NCBI GenBank assembly: GCA_043772945.1
Contig: JAYVFR010000023.1
Span: forward strand, 4,159 to 68,158
DNA length: 64,000 bases
Direction: 5' to 3'
From: Minisyncoccota bacterium
GTDB taxonomy: Bacteria > Patescibacteriota > JACMRA01
In this document: positions 58,439-64,000 of the stretch, piece by piece
How the letters are laid out: every line of letters begins with the position of its first letter
How positions within the stretch are numbered: the first letter of the stretch is position 1
Notes under the pieces: generated by a model
The model's database searches: none
What the model was told of the DNA's origin: nothing
The model's input: the letters and a program-made list of their open reading frames with translations, nothing else
Program-made: the position numbers and the translations under genes

Positions 58439-60418
58439 ATGATTTTAAAGCTCTCTAGTGAATTAGATTCTAATCTAAACAGCACAGTAAACAAAAATAT
58501 TAAACTTAAAAGTAATTCAAAAGCCGAATTTAATCAGACTAATCAAGTTTTTGAGGACTATATTAAAGAAGTAGAATTAGAATCAAAATTAGCAACTGAA
58601 AACGCTCAAGAAGCAAGACCTGAATTTGATGCTCTTTACCAAAGCGATTATACAGATGGCGAGCTTAATCAGTTAATTGCTAAATGGGAACGCAAGCCCA
58701 AAGTAATTAACGTCCCAACTTTCAGAGAAATTTTAACTACAACAAGTTTGGATGAGATGACTGAATTAGAGGTTTCTAACATTAGTCAATTAGAAGCAAA
58801 GAGTGCTATTGAGAGACTAAATCGCGAAAAGACTATTAGCGGAGAAACTAAGCCTCAAACTAACCTAGATCAAGCTACTCCAACAATTGAAAAAGTTTCT
58901 AAAGACAGAGCTAAAAACACTTTGGCTCCTATAATTAATTCAACTATTAAATTGCAGATTGCTAATCCAAACTTTAAAGACGTTGTTAAAGAAAAACAAG
59001 CAAATCAAAAAATTCTAGACGAGCAACAGAAACAAGTAGAAACCCAGGATAAAATCCAGCGACTAGAAAAAGAATTTAAACAGAATAATAAACAACCAAC
59101 AACCGAATTAGAGAAACTAGATTATGAATCAAATAGAACTAATTATTTAATTGATAATGACAGTAATTTAACCACAGACCAAAAAACTCAAGCTAAAAGA
59201 AATTACAAAAATACTTTAAAGAGAAATAGTCCAAGTAATCAATCAAGTTCATCACAGTCTTCCCGCTCTCAAAGTTCAAGTGACAATTCAAGTACTTCAT
59301 CTCAGACAAACAACAGCTCAAGCTCCTCTAACTCAAGCCCAATAGTATTAAATAATAATCAGCCAAGTTCTAATAATTGGGTTACTAGCCTTGCTAACGC
59401 AGTTTTTGGAGGTGGTATTCAGGCGGAGGCTAAAGGATTAAACAACTCTGACACAGCCTTATCAATTTATTCATGGGACTATAATGGTGGCTTTGCCTTG
59501 GATATACCGAACGGGAATACAAACATCGGGACACAAATTGCAGTGAATTATAATAATAACGATAATGCTCAGAAATGGTGGACGAATAACAGCCAAGAGA
59601 TTAGATCTAAGCTAAATACAGACAGATGTTTAGATATTAGCGGAGGAAATTATACTAATGGAACTACAATAGCCTTGCATTATTGTACAGGCAACGATGC
59701 TCAGAAGTTCTTTTTTTATGGGAATACTTTGCGGTCTTGGGCTAATCCAAATTATTGTATAGATGTACCGAGTAATAACTGGACTCCGAATGTAGTTCAA
59801 TTATGGGATTGCAATAGTAGCGGTGCTCAGAAATTCGTCCCAGGAGACAACGGCTTCAACAACACCTTCCAAGTCCAGATAGCTACTAATGGAGGTATTT
59901 TAGCAGGTAATGGATTAAGCTCTGGTCATACTTTTGTAATTTTCAAAACTAATAACCAATTGAATAACACTATGTCGCTTTGGCCAGATTATGACACAAA
60001 TTGTGATAATGGTCGCCCAGGTTGGGCAAGTACTAGAGACTTTTTAAGACAAAATAATATGTGTGATTTTGATGGAGTAAAAGTTGACTGGGAAAAAACT
60101 CAAACAGAAGGAGATTTATACTATGCCTTAAATACAGCCAATACTGGATTTACCGTTAAGACGACTAGCATTAAAAAAACAACATCCGATCTTTATAGAT
60201 TTGGTGGTGGCTATCGCATAGGAGATAATTGGGGTCGTGATAATGTGAATTACGATTACAATGCTTTTTGGTGGGGAGCAAACAGAAATAATGGAAATTG
60301 TGTGTCTTTTTCTCAATATCTTTGGAATGATATGATGTCAACAGATGGAAAGTTATTTATGCGAATTAAACCTGATGCAGTGATCTCAGCACCTGCTACA
60401 TTATTGAACTATTATTAA
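58439..60418 (+). CDS. ricin-type beta-trefoil lectin protein with uncharacterised His...Cys C-terminal domain (putative toxin)
   Basis: 659 aa with no signal peptide of its own. A Ser-rich linker is followed by three QxW-type repeats (AQKWW, AQKFFF, AQKFV) at about aa 330-470. The C-terminal ~175 aa contain GHTFVIF and NGNCVSFSQYLW. Confidence 0.7.
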   Translation: MILKLSSELDSNLNSTVNKNIKLKSNSKAEFNQTNQVFEDYIKEVELESKLATENAQEARPEFDALYQSDYTDGELNQLIAKWERKPKVINVPTFREILTTTSLDEMTELEVSNISQLEAKSAIERLNREKTISGETKPQTNLDQATPTIEKVSKDRAKNTLAPIINSTIKLQIANPNFKDVVKEKQANQKILDEQQKQVETQDKIQRLEKEFKQNNKQPTTELEKLDYESNRTNYLIDNDSNLTTDQKTQAKRNYKNTLKRNSPSNQSSSSQSSRSQSSSDNSSTSSQTNNSSSSSNSSPIVLNNNQPSSNNWVTSLANAVFGGGIQAEAKGLNNSDTALSIYSWDYNGGFALDIPNGNTNIGTQIAVNYNNNDNAQKWWTNNSQEIRSKLNTDRCLDISGGNYTNGTTIALHYCTGNDAQKFFFYGNTLRSWANPNYCIDVPSNNWTPNVVQLWDCNSSGAQKFVPGDNGFNNTFQVQIATNGGILAGNGLSSGHTFVIFKTNNQLNNTMSLWPDYDTNCDNGRPGWASTRDFLRQNNMCDFDGVKVDWEKTQTEGDLYYALNTANTGFTVKTTSIKKTTSDLYRFGGGYRIGDNWGRDNVNYDYNAFWWGANRNNGNCVSFSQYLWNDMMSTDGKLFMRIKPDAVISAPATLLNYY

Positions 60419-60433
60419 ATTATCATTATTTTT

Positions 60434-61051
60434 ATGTACTTCTATCTTATACTTTTTTTTATAATAATTACATCTATTTTTATCTACTTATTAAATAAAA
60501 GTAACCTACAAAAAAAGACTAAAATAATATTAAGGACTCTAATATTTTTGCCAATAACTTTTTTTCTACTTGGAATAATAGTACTTAATCTATTGCAGTT
60601 TTTACAATTTCGTACATCGGATCCAGTATTATTAAATTGTAATGTAAATGACTATACATCTAATAAAAGCTATCGTTTAAACATATTTGGCGAGGAATAT
60701 ATATCTAATCAAGATGGGAGTATGATGCCATCTACAATACAAAATCGCTGGAATTTTAATAAAATTAGTCTTTTCGAAGAAGAATTGAGCAAGGAAAATA
60801 ATGCAAAGTATGAATTAAAAGAAAAATACGGTCAATTTATACAAGATTGCAGCAATAAAAAAGATATAGATTACAAATATCAAGTTTATACGCGTGAAAT
60901 ATCAGATAAAAATAATGATACTATAACTTATCCTAGCAAAAAAATAGTTCTTCCTGAAACTATTTGCTATCTCAAGAAAGTTACAAGTAGTGCTACTGAT
61001 TATCCTGATTGCTCCAGCGAAATTAAAGCTAAGTTTGGTCTCGGGAAGTAA
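60434..61051 (+). CDS. membrane-anchored tail-motif protein 1 (immunity-like)
   Basis: 205 aa with two N-terminal TM helices and an extracytoplasmic Cys-containing domain. Ends ...CYLKKVTSSATDYPDCSSEIKAKFGLGK. Confidence 0.55.
   Translation: MYFYLILFFIIITSIFIYLLNKSNLQKKTKIILRTLIFLPITFFLLGIIVLNLLQFLQFRTSDPVLLNCNVNDYTSNKSYRLNIFGEEYISNQDGSMMPSTIQNRWNFNKISLFEEELSKENNAKYELKEKYGQFIQDCSNKKDIDYKYQVYTREISDKNNDTITYPSKKIVLPETICYLKKVTSSATDYPDCSSEIKAKFGLGK
60995..61038 (+). repeat. 44-nt block identical to 61913-61956
   Basis: actgattatcctgattgctccagcgaaattaaagctaagtttgg occurs identically in two genes that are otherwise diverged. Confidence 0.9.
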
Positions 61052-61060
61052 TATTAATTT

Positions 61061-61324
61061 ATGTTTTTAATTAAGTATTCTTTTAGAAGAGTTTCTGACA
61101 TCTATCGTTTTAGTGGCGGGTATAGATGGGGTAGAAGTAACTGGGGTAAAGATAATATTAGATATACACCTGTTTATCTTGGTACAAATAATACTGGTAA
61201 CTGTGCTTCCTTTAGTTACATACTTTGGAATCAAATTATGGAAGATAATGGAATGTCTCGATTATTTGTTATCGGTTTTGATGTACCTGGTTTTATTAAG
61301 TTTGCTTTAGATGGTAGTATTTAA
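61061..61324 (+). CDS. orphan C-terminal fragment homologous to the toxin tip
   Basis: 87 aa. SDIYRFSGGYRWGRSNWGKDNIRY...NNTGNCASFSYILWNQIM aligns with SDLYRFGGGYRIGDNWGRDNVNY...NNGNCVSFSQYLWNDMM of the 659-aa protein. The upstream His-containing half is missing. Confidence 0.5.
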   Translation: MFLIKYSFRRVSDIYRFSGGYRWGRSNWGKDNIRYTPVYLGTNNTGNCASFSYILWNQIMEDNGMSRLFVIGFDVPGFIKFALDGSI

Positions 61325-61333
61325 TAATTTAGT

Positions 61334-61963
61334 ATGTTTATTTTACTTATTTTAATTGTATCAATTTTACTTTTTACTTTAATATATTTTAATGTATTAA
61401 GAAAGGCAAAAATACATAAATCAAAAAATTTATTACTTATCGGTTTATTTGTAAGTGTAGCAATTATAGTGTTTTTAATTATTAATTCCCTGGTAATTTA
61501 TTTTCCAGAATATAAATCTTTACAGTGTGGAGATACTAAGTTTTCTTTTCAAAAAAGTGTTAAAGGTACGGAATCGTTTACAATTTATGGAGGGGACTGG
61601 AATTTAGATTTAAATAAAGTTTCAAATAGTTTCGTCGGTATAAATCCTAGGTTAGTTTTAACTTTTGTTAATTATGATCTAGATAATGACAAATTAAGTT
61701 CAGAATATAAACTTTTAAGAAGTAATGAAGCAACCCGTAAAGCTAATGTTATTAAAAAGCTTCTAGATTGTAAGGGCTACGATAATGATGTTATTTATTC
61801 AGTTGGCAAACCTAAAAGTGTTAATGAAAATGGCTTTCCTGTTCCTGATTCCAATGGTAATAATACATATTTATATGATCGTTACTGCTATATTGCCAAT
61901 TACTCTAAAGTCACTGATTATCCTGATTGCTCCAGCGAAATTAAAGCTAAGTTTGGGATTTAA
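61334..61963 (+). CDS. membrane-anchored tail-motif protein 2 (immunity-like)
   Basis: 209 aa with two N-terminal TM helices. Ends ...CYIANYSKVTDYPDCSSEIKAKFGI. Confidence 0.55.
   Translation: MFILLILIVSILLFTLIYFNVLRKAKIHKSKNLLLIGLFVSVAIIVFLIINSLVIYFPEYKSLQCGDTKFSFQKSVKGTESFTIYGGDWNLDLNKVSNSFVGINPRLVLTFVNYDLDNDKLSSEYKLLRSNEATRKANVIKKLLDCKGYDNDVIYSVGKPKSVNENGFPVPDSNGNNTYLYDRYCYIANYSKVTDYPDCSSEIKAKFGI
61913..61956 (+). repeat. 44-nt block identical to 60995-61038
   Basis: See the partner repeat at 60995-61038. Confidence 0.9.
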
Positions 61964-61977
61964 TTAATTAAAAAAAT

Positions 61978-63573
61978 ATGTCTAAAAATTTAATTAATAT
62001 TACCAATATTACCAAATCAATTTTTCAAAAAATTATTCTAATTGGAATTTCTCTGATATTTGTTATTAATAAGCTAATTATTGTTCTAAATGATTTTCAT
62101 CAAGGTGGAATCACATATATGCCAAGTAGGTTTGAGCGAATTTCACTTTTAATCTCAAATTTTGAATTTTTTGGAATTGCGATTGTAATAGTTAGCTGTT
62201 TGTATTTGAATATTCGTTATTATAAATCAAAGTTAGTTTATCTATTGACATTTTTAATTTTGTTTAAAGATTTATTTTTTACCAATATTAGCCTGCTATT
62301 TCCTTCATTTTTTATATATTTTAGTAATCCATCTAATTATAAGTTTTATTTATTGGTTAGTGTTATCTTTAGTAATTTATTCTTTGCTTTGTTGCTTGGA
62401 ATTTACCAAATTTGGTTGATCAATATCTTTAAAAAACCTGTGGAGCTAGAGAAATATAAAGCATTTAACAATAAATTATTTACGCCTTGGAATAAGTTAA
62501 ATCAGACTAATTCAATGAAAGTGCTTTATTATATTTTAATGGTTGTTATTACTCTATTAGCGGGAGCTAGTATTTATCTAACAATCAAGGGCTTATTATT
62601 TGGCAATATAACTGGCGAGCTAGGAGGTGCTAGAAATGGATTAGAGGCTTTTTCAGTTTTATTGTTTGGATTGCCCATTTATATAACTTTTAATTTATGC
62701 CACATTACCTTTATAAATGCGAATAAACAAATTTATAAAAACCTAAATATTTATAAAAAGAGGATGATTGCTTGGTTTGTGATAATTGGCATAGTTATAA
62801 TTTCAACAATAGCGTTATTATATTTCTATCAAAATTATTATGATAATAACTTAGCTGTTACAATTTTAACTTCATATTTTGGCATTTTCATTATTCTACC
62901 TACTATTTATGATTTGTTTTTAACAAGAATTCAAATAAACAAAAAAAATCTTTTATTTGTATTTATTTTTTTAACCACTATAATAATTGCAGGATTGATT
63001 GGTGGTTATTTATATAATGATTATACTCACAAATTACGTGATATTGAAACTGTAGAATTGAATTGTAAACAAGGTAAACTCACTAAATATACAAGCTTTG
63101 ATTTTAATATTAACCGCAAAAGAAGCGTATTTCAAACAAAGGATTCAACTATTGATAACTATTTAAAAACTATTACTAAAAATGATGATAATTTAAATTT
63201 AGTTTTTTCTTTACCCTCTTTATCTGATGGATTGTATGTCAAAACACTGACTGGGGGTTATAGTGAATCAATGGTTCAGGATTGGATTAAAGCAGAAAAT
63301 GAAAGACGCTCTGTTACTATGTCAAAATATGGTAACTTGATTGAAAGTTGTTATGAATCTAATAATTTAAATTATTTATTTCAAGAGCTTAAAACCATTG
63401 ATAAATCTGATTCAAAAGTATCAAAAAGTTACAGTCCTAGGACTGGTGATGAACTTCATCAATACGAGGACGTAATTATTCCAGAATCAACCTGCTATCT
63501 TAAGAAAGTCACAATCAATGCGAATGACTATCCTGATTGTAGCTCTGAGATTAAAGCTAAGTTTGGGTTATAA
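61978..63573 (+). CDS. polytopic membrane protein with C-terminal tail-motif domain (family member 3)
   Basis: 531 aa. About 10 TM helices are followed by a ~170-aa domain similar to the two short members. Ends ...CYLKKVTINANDYPDCSSEIKAKFGL. Confidence 0.6.
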   Translation: MSKNLINITNITKSIFQKIILIGISLIFVINKLIIVLNDFHQGGITYMPSRFERISLLISNFEFFGIAIVIVSCLYLNIRYYKSKLVYLLTFLILFKDLFFTNISLLFPSFFIYFSNPSNYKFYLLVSVIFSNLFFALLLGIYQIWLINIFKKPVELEKYKAFNNKLFTPWNKLNQTNSMKVLYYILMVVITLLAGASIYLTIKGLLFGNITGELGGARNGLEAFSVLLFGLPIYITFNLCHITFINANKQIYKNLNIYKKRMIAWFVIIGIVIISTIALLYFYQNYYDNNLAVTILTSYFGIFIILPTIYDLFLTRIQINKKNLLFVFIFLTTIIIAGLIGGYLYNDYTHKLRDIETVELNCKQGKLTKYTSFDFNINRKRSVFQTKDSTIDNYLKTITKNDDNLNLVFSLPSLSDGLYVKTLTGGYSESMVQDWIKAENERRSVTMSKYGNLIESCYESNNLNYLFQELKTIDKSDSKVSKSYSPRTGDELHQYEDVIIPESTCYLKKVTINANDYPDCSSEIKAKFGL

Positions 63574-63761: not shown

Positions 63762-64000
63762 CTACTTTAACTCAAACTTAGCTTTAATTTCAGCAGAACA
63801 ATCAGGATAATCAGTCTCACCCGTTCGGTTTAGAAGGTAGCAATATTCTGAATTAGTTATTTTATTAATCTCTGTGATTGTGTCAATATTTAGAGATTTA
63901 CAACTTGAATATTTTTTAAAATCTAATTTAATGTCTTCAATAATTGATTGCGATAAGAAATTATCATAATTTCCAAAAAGTATATACTTGTTATTGTATA
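63762..64000 (-). CDS. tail-motif family member on the minus strand, 5' end outside the window
   Basis: Translates to ...NSEYCYLLNRTGETDYPDCSAEIKAKFELK followed by a stop (TAG at 63762-63764). Confidence 0.55.
   Translation of the reverse strand, partial: YNNKYILFGNYDNFLSQSIIEDIKLDFKKYSSCKSLNIDTITEINKITNSEYCYLLNRTGETDYPDCSAEIKAKFELK

Follow-up and report, generated by a model that had tools for sequence, protein, structure and literature searches.

A candidate permuted NlpC/P60-type toxin domain behind a ricin-type lectin in a family of Patescibacteria

What could be the function of a protein domain that no library recognises but that follows a lectin in a patescibacterial genome, and why is the last third of such a domain found again, on its own, between the genes downstream? 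These questions are raised by a stretch of 64,000 nucleotides from a Minisyncoccota bacterium (contig JAYVFR010000023.1 of assembly GCA_043772945.1, positions 4,159 to 68,158 of the forward strand; hereafter the window), in which a 659-aa open reading frame (ORF) ends in the domain in question and an 87-aa orphan keeps its last third. An earlier note on this DNA had seen a His-before-Cys order in the domain, which it likened to LRAT and permuted NlpC/P60 enzymes, had taken the orphan for a displaced, exchangeable tip, and had proposed aligning homologues and modelling the fold with AlphaFold and Foldseek. The best explanation for what has been found, to which we give a probability of about 60%, is a Sec-secreted, ricin-lectin-guided polymorphic toxin whose C-terminal domain would be a new, lineage-restricted clade of permuted NlpC/P60 proteins. 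The toxin gene and its domain have the following layout.

57808-58434, plus strand: N-terminal piece of the toxin gene, 208 aa with a signal-peptide-like start, now a separate ORF (ORF list)
58403-58434, plus strand: 16-nt tandem duplication of the AGGATTCAAACGCTG type (repeat analysis, sequence, alignment to contig L019)
58439-60418, plus strand: 659-aa ORF that encodes a ricin-B lectin between a low-complexity or coiled region and the C-terminal domain (ORF list, Pfam)
59483-59836, plus strand: ricin-type β-trefoil lectin, aa 349-466 (Pfam PF00652, E 1.2e-16)
59840-60415, plus strand: C-terminal domain of the toxin (aa 468-659), a His-Asn-Cys enzyme candidate of the permuted papain-like (NlpC/P60) type (AlphaFold 2, Foldseek)
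59927-59929, plus strand: codon of His497 (CAT), invariant candidate general base (20/20 in the alignment)
59966-59968, plus strand: codon of Asn510, 13 residues after the His, candidate third triad residue (20/20)
60002-60004, plus strand: codon of Cys522, half of a co-varying Cys pair, a putative disulfide (alignment)
60062-60064, plus strand: codon of Cys542 (in NNMCDFD), the partner of Cys522 (alignment)
60299-60301, plus strand: codon of Cys621 (TGT), invariant candidate nucleophile (23/23)

The two residues singled out by the earlier note are present in the raw sequence, where GHTFVIF is encoded as GGT CAT ACT TTT GTA ATT TTC, with CAT specifying His497, and NGNCVSFS as AAT GGA AAT TGT GTG TCT TTT TCT, with TGT specifying Cys621, 124 residues further on. 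Their invariance is borne out by an alignment of 24 family sequences, in which the His and the Asn are common to all 20 full domains and the Cys to all 23 sequences of a count that includes the orphans. The mean column identity of this alignment is only 27-36% and pairwise identity drops below 30%; judged from these sequences, the conservation of His and Cys is far beyond chance. Across the family, the Asn lies at +13 from the His and the Cys at +91 to +111 from the Asn (104-124 residues between His and Cys), and there are other conserved features, that is, a W-P motif, an acidic cluster (NNICDxDxxxVDxxxD), SDxxR[FY], GYR, a Tyr, C-x3-S-x3-W-N and a final Pro. The presence of Cys522 is matched perfectly by that of Cys542, with both found in 15 members, neither in five and a single one in none, which points to a disulfide and hence to an extracytoplasmic protein. 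This putative disulfide adjoins the acidic cluster, which could bind Ca2+.

How might these residues come together in space? AlphaFold 2 models were built without templates for two family members, the window domain (192 aa; predicted local distance difference test, pLDDT, 74; predicted template modelling score, pTM, 0.79) and a compact member from contig L017 (169 aa; pLDDT 81; pTM 0.82). Both begin with three long β-strands, the second of which is opened by the His while the third carries the Asn, continue with short strands and helices, and end with a long helix that has the invariant Cys at its N-terminal start. His30 (corresponding to His497) opens strand 30-37 in both, the Asn is on strand 40-47, and the Cys is the first residue of helix 154-169 in the window model (Cys154, corresponding to Cys621) and lies at the start of helix 130-149 in the L017 model (Cys134). 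As modelled, this is a papain-like arrangement in circularly permuted order, with three hallmarks of the permuted NlpC/P60 group predicted in place: (i) a catalytic-type Cys at the start of an α-helix, (ii) a His on a β-strand that precedes the Cys in sequence and (iii) a polar residue that follows the His by 12-17 residues and lies on the next strand, a position taken here by the Asn at +13. That group, which consists of the YiiX, LRAT, TseH (DUF6695), Tox-Act1 and DUF4105 clades, is lipid-directed (PMC12994826). When 350,542 PDB chains were searched with Foldseek, the sole match spanning the domain was, for both models, TseH (6v98), over 192-206 aligned columns, with E 0.077 and a query-normalised template modelling score (TMq) of 0.40 for the window model, and E 0.33, TMq 0.46 and a target-normalised score (TMt) of 0.43 for the L017 model; all other matches have TM <= 0.26 and are mostly MHC helices. 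Based on these models, placing the fold in the permuted NlpC/P60 group is in our opinion the better bet.

The narrower LRAT/HRASLS label offered by the earlier note had to be abandoned, given that there is no PF04970 match, that the box reads NC[AV]SFS rather than NCEHF, that the third residue is Asn and not His, and that there is no hydrophobic C-terminus that could serve as an anchor. Several other classes were tried and dismissed (ART with its H-Y-E, deaminase with HxE..PCxxC, sortase, caspase, clan-CE and chymotrypsin-like Cys-protease), which misfit in motif spacing and secondary structure and are not among the fold matches.

That the protein is part of a polymorphic toxin system is suggested by a comparison with its closest relative (P0002), encoded on metagenome contig L019. 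In a sliding comparison, DNA identity is 90-98% from 57674 to ~59818, falls to ~65% at 59819-60088 and to ~50-60% through the remaining domain, then to ~30-50% with long gaps in the body of the gene that follows, before returning to 77% in the last 90 nt of that gene. A conserved N-terminal part is thus joined to a hypervariable C-terminal domain between close relatives, as in polymorphic toxins, and the downstream gene, a candidate immunity gene, is as diverged as the toxin domain. Since identity drops sharply at the lectin/domain junction (~59820) and remains low across the domain and the immunity gene, the variable module comprises the whole domain, His half included, together with that gene. 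Read from the alignment, the module runs from the lectin/domain junction to the conserved immunity tail, and the Cys half does not appear to be the unit of exchange.

The genes downstream of the toxin, some of which are paralogous, are the following.

60434-61051, plus strand: candidate cognate immunity protein 1 (imm1), 205 aa; two N-terminal transmembrane helices precede a Cys-rich domain on the outside, and the tail reads CY..DYPDCSSEIKAKFG
60995-61038, plus strand: 44-nt immunity-tail block, 100% identical to 61913-61956 (repeat analysis)
61061-61324, plus strand: orphan of 87 aa, in which the final third of another toxin allele continues in frame from an immunity-type start (ATG TTT ..)
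61334-61963, plus strand: candidate immunity protein 2 (imm2), 209 aa, presumably cognate to the lost toxin of the orphan
61978-63573, plus strand: 531-aa polytopic membrane protein, ~9 transmembrane segments, with the same outside domain and tail motif at its end
63762-63998, minus strand: 3' part of one more gene for a tail-motif protein, with which a second, convergent array opens that runs on past the window

The CY…DYPDCSSEIKAKFG tail and four conserved cysteines are common to the products of 60434-61051, 61334-61963, 61978-63573 and the minus-strand gene at 63762. In imm1 and imm2, topology prediction finds two N-terminal transmembrane helices with a Lys-rich loop between them, which places the four-Cys domain outside the cell. 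This tail-motif family has 11 matches in the window's own genome and in no other of 61 related genomes, and a tail-motif gene also follows the toxin gene on L019. In relatives, the same downstream position is taken by unrelated small proteins with two to four transmembrane segments, a pattern that would be expected of fast-evolving immunity proteins acting at the membrane. There is a membrane-protein gene after the toxin gene in every locus for which downstream sequence is available, separated by a short gap or an overlap of at most ~25 nt. Outside the identical 44-nt block, imm1 and imm2 share ~30% protein identity. The block, which also occurs at 63523-63566 and, inverted, at 63773-63815, falls within the stretch where identity to L019 recovers (from ~60955) and may be a recombination border.

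The orphan can be explained within such a system. The main protein matches it over aa 580-641 (49% identity, E 7e-15). It contains SDIYRFSGGYR and TGNCASFSYILWN but no equivalent of the His half, and the homology sets in just ahead of SDxYRF, much as the earlier note had described it. Several alleles share ~50% identity with it and no allele is close to it, which led to the rejection of a descent from the allele of the closest relative, and repeat analysis detected no nucleotide similarity between the orphan and the main toxin gene. Its first codons (ATG TTT TTA ATT) resemble those of imm2 (ATG TTT ATT TTA). Just past the end of the window, a second, convergent array known from another assembly (L027/L028) holds another orphan, P0012, which starts MYFMFRYDSAYR and whose 5' context differs from the start of a neighbouring immunity-type gene by two substitutions in ~60 nt, up to ATG TTT A. 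The immunity-type starts of both orphans mark them as in-frame fusions to the last third of a toxin, and thus as deletion products. Two such pairs, each a 5'-truncated toxin end with its own immunity gene, were found, that is, the window orphan with imm2 and P0012 with a 183-aa tail-motif gene. As far as sequence can tell, the orphan at 61061-61324 is therefore a deletion remnant left with its immunity gene and not a working toxin, and the exchangeable Cys tip of the earlier note gives way to a module that includes the whole domain. Lacking the His and the Asn, the orphans would have no enzyme activity under the mechanism proposed below. They nevertheless keep open frames and every conserved residue of the C-terminal third. 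Tandem toxin loci, the arrangement needed for orphans to arise by deletion, do exist, since on L018 a second full-length toxin gene with a signal anchor, a long linker and a lectin (1311-2927) directly follows a toxin-immunity pair.

Further toxin-end fragments are P0013 and one on L015, a separate 76-aa Cys-half fragment from genome G009. On another contig of G009 (L009, 199-1893), a toxin ORF stops just past the YDFIKYSNGYKN motif, in the region of the orphan breakpoints. The second array on L027 (1-2122, opposite strand) consists of the end of a tail-motif gene, P0012 (78 aa), three tail-motif genes (183, 152 and 152 aa) and a 76-aa gene that is decapitated, and the contig of the window's genome ends within this array.

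The toxin gene itself has been damaged in the window. On L019, the relative P0002 is a single ORF of 866-875 aa that corresponds to 57808-58434 fused to the 659-aa ORF, and the alignment shows L019 to be without the 16 nt at 58403-58434. This duplication, also present in a second assembly (L028) that is 99.9% identical, shifts the frame and thereby splits the gene into a signal-peptide ORF, whose signal-peptide-like N-terminus reads MFLPPLILKTIKFQLFIFMIFNFSFLSFNSTVSALA, and a lectin/toxin ORF; on this comparison the two pieces are to be read as one ancestral gene. The immunity-type genes downstream are all intact. Two more paralogous loci in the same genome, whose assembly amounts to 948 kb and 26 contigs, lie on C25 and C13; both are intact and encode signal-type N-termini, the lectin and the same C-terminal domain (38% identity), with one to three small membrane proteins encoded after each. 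Scanning for promoters and terminators gave a result no better than shuffled sequences.

How widespread is the domain? Searched exhaustively with HMMER, a set of 1.84 billion representative proteins yielded only 14 matches, and word-indexed homologue searches found almost nothing beyond these. Among the 61 related genomes, the domain is present in eight of the 26 from the family of the window's genome and in none of the 35 from the remaining order and phylum. The lectin followed by the domain is the architecture of every full-length member except the divergent P0016, and a signal sequence starts every member whose N-terminus was recovered. Hidden Markov model (HMM) matches that spanned the N-terminal half alone were considered as signs of alternative C-terminal tips, an idea that was rejected because these sequences are diverged complete domains that keep the Cys. 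The compact member on L017, an 8-kb contig, is labelled 'Limisphaerales bacterium' in the public record, whereas the genome collection puts this metagenome-assembled genome (1.5 Mb) in the family of the window's genome; the record label or the binning may be wrong.

Under the mechanism that we favour, Cys621 at the N-terminus of its helix would act as the nucleophile, with Asn510 on the neighbouring strand orienting His497, in an order and with a spacing like those of Glu81-His64-Cys172 in TseH (PMC11573676), Asn66-His49-Cys148 in Lnb, a DUF4105 protein (PMC11573676), and His43/Cys151 in Tox-Act1, which is a phospholipase (PMC12994826). By analogy with these proteins, the enzyme would work on the outer face of the target membrane, where membrane lipids or lipoproteins would have their acyl chains cleaved or transferred, and peptidoglycan cleavage would be less likely than such acyl chemistry. 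The toxin would be secreted via its signal peptide, a feature also of the intact paralogues and the relatives, and held by the lectin on surface glycans of the target, while the membrane proteins encoded directly downstream would protect the producer at its membrane.

Several observations weigh against this scenario. The toxin ORF of the window is severed from its signal-peptide-like N-terminus, and this particular allele may therefore be inactive. A significant likeness in sequence or profile to one of the families of the permuted group would be another hallmark of membership, but none was found in Pfam, NCBIfam and PDB profiles or by hhalign. Indeed, hmmscan of all 16 members against Pfam and NCBIfam (E <= 10) gave nothing relevant; for the toxin, the orphan and the downstream neighbours, these libraries recognised the lectin alone (61.5 bits, above the Pfam gathering cut-off of 29) and nothing for aa 468-659; PDB sequence searches with one protein and two profiles gave no match; and four YiiX-like (PF05708) sequences from this phylum, compared by hhalign, gave no significant result (E 0.84), the best local match pairing only one Cys helix with the other (C[AV]SFS versus CS[GA]F). 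As for the fold, the permuted papain-like idea of the earlier note survives as the best available explanation, with TseH the sole whole-domain match, on Foldseek values that fall short of significance (E 0.077 and 0.33) and scores below 0.5. There was no LRAT, YiiX or PPPDE structure in the top 50 Foldseek matches, and a BFVD fold search yielded nothing. The two models derive from homologous sequences, so that their agreement is not independent evidence, and the likeness to TseH was assessed by whole-fold score and by residue order and spacing.

These negative results feed the most serious of the alternatives, namely that the domain has a new fold unrelated to NlpC/P60, resembles TseH by chance and uses His and Cys for other chemistry or, with the Asp cluster, for a metal. 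The want of any significant sequence, profile or Foldseek match, scores under the usual same-fold threshold and the presence of the conserved acidic cluster all speak for it. On the other hand, template-free modelling produced the hallmark geometry, with the His on a strand, a helix capped by the Cys and a polar residue at +13, and the single full-length match among all PDB chains searched is a toxin with exactly this order and spacing, which makes a new fold unlikely in our view. A slightly smaller chance goes to the same permuted fold acting on the cell wall, as a peptidoglycan amidase or endopeptidase, or on lipid II, like Tse1 and other classical NlpC/P60 effectors. Peptidoglycan hydrolases are after all the most familiar NlpC/P60 proteins, and TseH was initially put forward as one (PMC12994826); the lectin could dock on a wall polysaccharide, and membrane-anchored immunity proteins with an outside domain fit any extracytoplasmic target. 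The permuted branch is however lipid-directed, with TseH having shown phospholipase activity on liposomes (PMC12994826), and the genes downstream in relatives encode small polytopic membrane proteins with almost no soluble part, a better fit to protection at the membrane than to the inhibition of a wall hydrolase that is soluble.

It is also conceivable, but highly improbable, that the protein is not an interbacterial toxin at all but a lectin-anchored envelope enzyme for the cell's own use, acting for instance on acyl chains or lipids of a host, with the downstream proteins as substrates or partners. Small-genome epibionts depend on host lipids, and the confinement of the 11 tail-motif copies to one genome can be counted on the same side. 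The superfamily includes housekeeping acyltransferases as well, such as DUF4105/Lnb and LnsA (PMC11573676). Such a role sits poorly with the hypervariability of the enzyme domain and the next gene between near-identical strains, with arrays of paralogous downstream genes and orphan toxin fragments, with the patchy distribution within the family, and with a toxin copy that is frameshifted while the downstream genes are intact. Some of these ideas may be combined in a more ambitious reading, which we consider rather doubtful, in which a sixth, hitherto unnoticed permuted NlpC/P60 clade restricted to one Patescibacteria family would serve as a lectin-guided, Sec-secreted lipid weapon or as a host-lipid harvester, with domain and immunity gene swapped between fixed borders that would be the lectin/domain junction and the nucleotide-conserved immunity tail. 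The orphans, which are in frame, bear a start and have been seen twice independently, could then be expressed Cys-half peptides with a function of their own, for example as a decoy or a recombination reservoir.

If the permuted NlpC/P60 toxin that we prefer is real, what would it mean? To our knowledge, hardly any work has been done on interbacterial toxins in the candidate phyla radiation, whose members are without the type V, VI and VII secretion carriers that underlie most of what is known about polymorphic toxins. Here, a plain signal peptide and a ricin lectin would stand in for a delivery machine, and the domain, which no library recognises, nonetheless shares its His-Asn-Cys layout with the permuted NlpC/P60 toxins that target lipids and were recently defined. 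The finding thus probably amounts to one more clade of a superfamily already known, with a novel lectin-fused, Sec-dependent architecture and from a little-studied phylum, rather than to a categorically new mechanism. It would (i) extend the superfamily to a new clade and phylum, (ii) provide a compact enzyme (~170-190 aa) for structure-function work and (iii) offer a natural case of module exchange bounded by a conserved immunity-gene tail.

Elsewhere in the window, on the minus strand (53083-55545), an 820-aa ORF resembles lysyl-tRNA synthetase with an extra C-terminal AlaX-like editing domain (FYPQGGGQPSDTG, HSAAHVI, CPCAGTHV).

How does this locus compare with known systems? TseH (VCA0285), a type VI secretion system (T6SS) effector of Vibrio cholerae, shares the order of His, polar residue and Cys, with His64 followed by Glu81 (+17) and Cys172 (+108) as against His497, Asn510 (+13) and a Cys at +104 to +124 here, and it too is a toxin with an adjacent immunity gene (a candidate one here). 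It differs in that there is no sequence or profile similarity, in that its third residue is Glu and not Asn, in the modest structural score (0.40-0.46) and in its delivery, by T6SS as opposed to Sec signal and ricin lectin. Tox-Act1 and Imm-Act1 of Salmonella offer another parallel, since no HMM recognised that toxin domain either, its His and Cys are ~108 residues apart, it hits phospholipids from the periplasmic side, and two transmembrane helices are present in Imm-Act1, as in the candidate immunity proteins here (PMC12994826). Homology between Tox-Act1 and the present domain is not in evidence, and the carrier (T6SS or T5SS, the type V system) and the phylum differ. The same triad composition and order, with Asn at +17 and Cys at +99 from the His, is found in Lnb, the lipoprotein N-acyltransferase of Bacteroides, for which TseH is the closest solved structure too (PMC11573676). 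Lnb is however a housekeeping protein fused to five transmembrane helices, and the domain here has no Pfam match to DUF4105. LRAT/HRASLS (PF04970) and YaeF/YiiX (PF05708), which perform lipid acyl chemistry, also have the His before the Cys and an N-C-x-x-F-like box at the start of a helix; they are set apart by the lack of a model match, by the differences in box and third residue described above and by their C-terminal membrane anchor, which has no counterpart here.

At the level of the whole system, the closest parallels are the CdiA-CT, Rhs and LXG polymorphic toxins, in which orphan CT/immunity cassettes have reportedly been described (by Zhang and co-workers, in 2012). As in these systems, the N-terminal part is conserved while the C-terminal domain and the adjacent immunity gene are hypervariable, immunity paralogues form arrays, and orphan toxin ends, truncated at the 5' side, come with their own immunity gene. 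Unlike in these systems, a signal peptide and a lectin alone take the place of a dedicated secretion or filament domain, the orphan breakpoint lies within the catalytic domain, and the conserved 3' tail of the immunity genes forms the right-hand end of the variable module.

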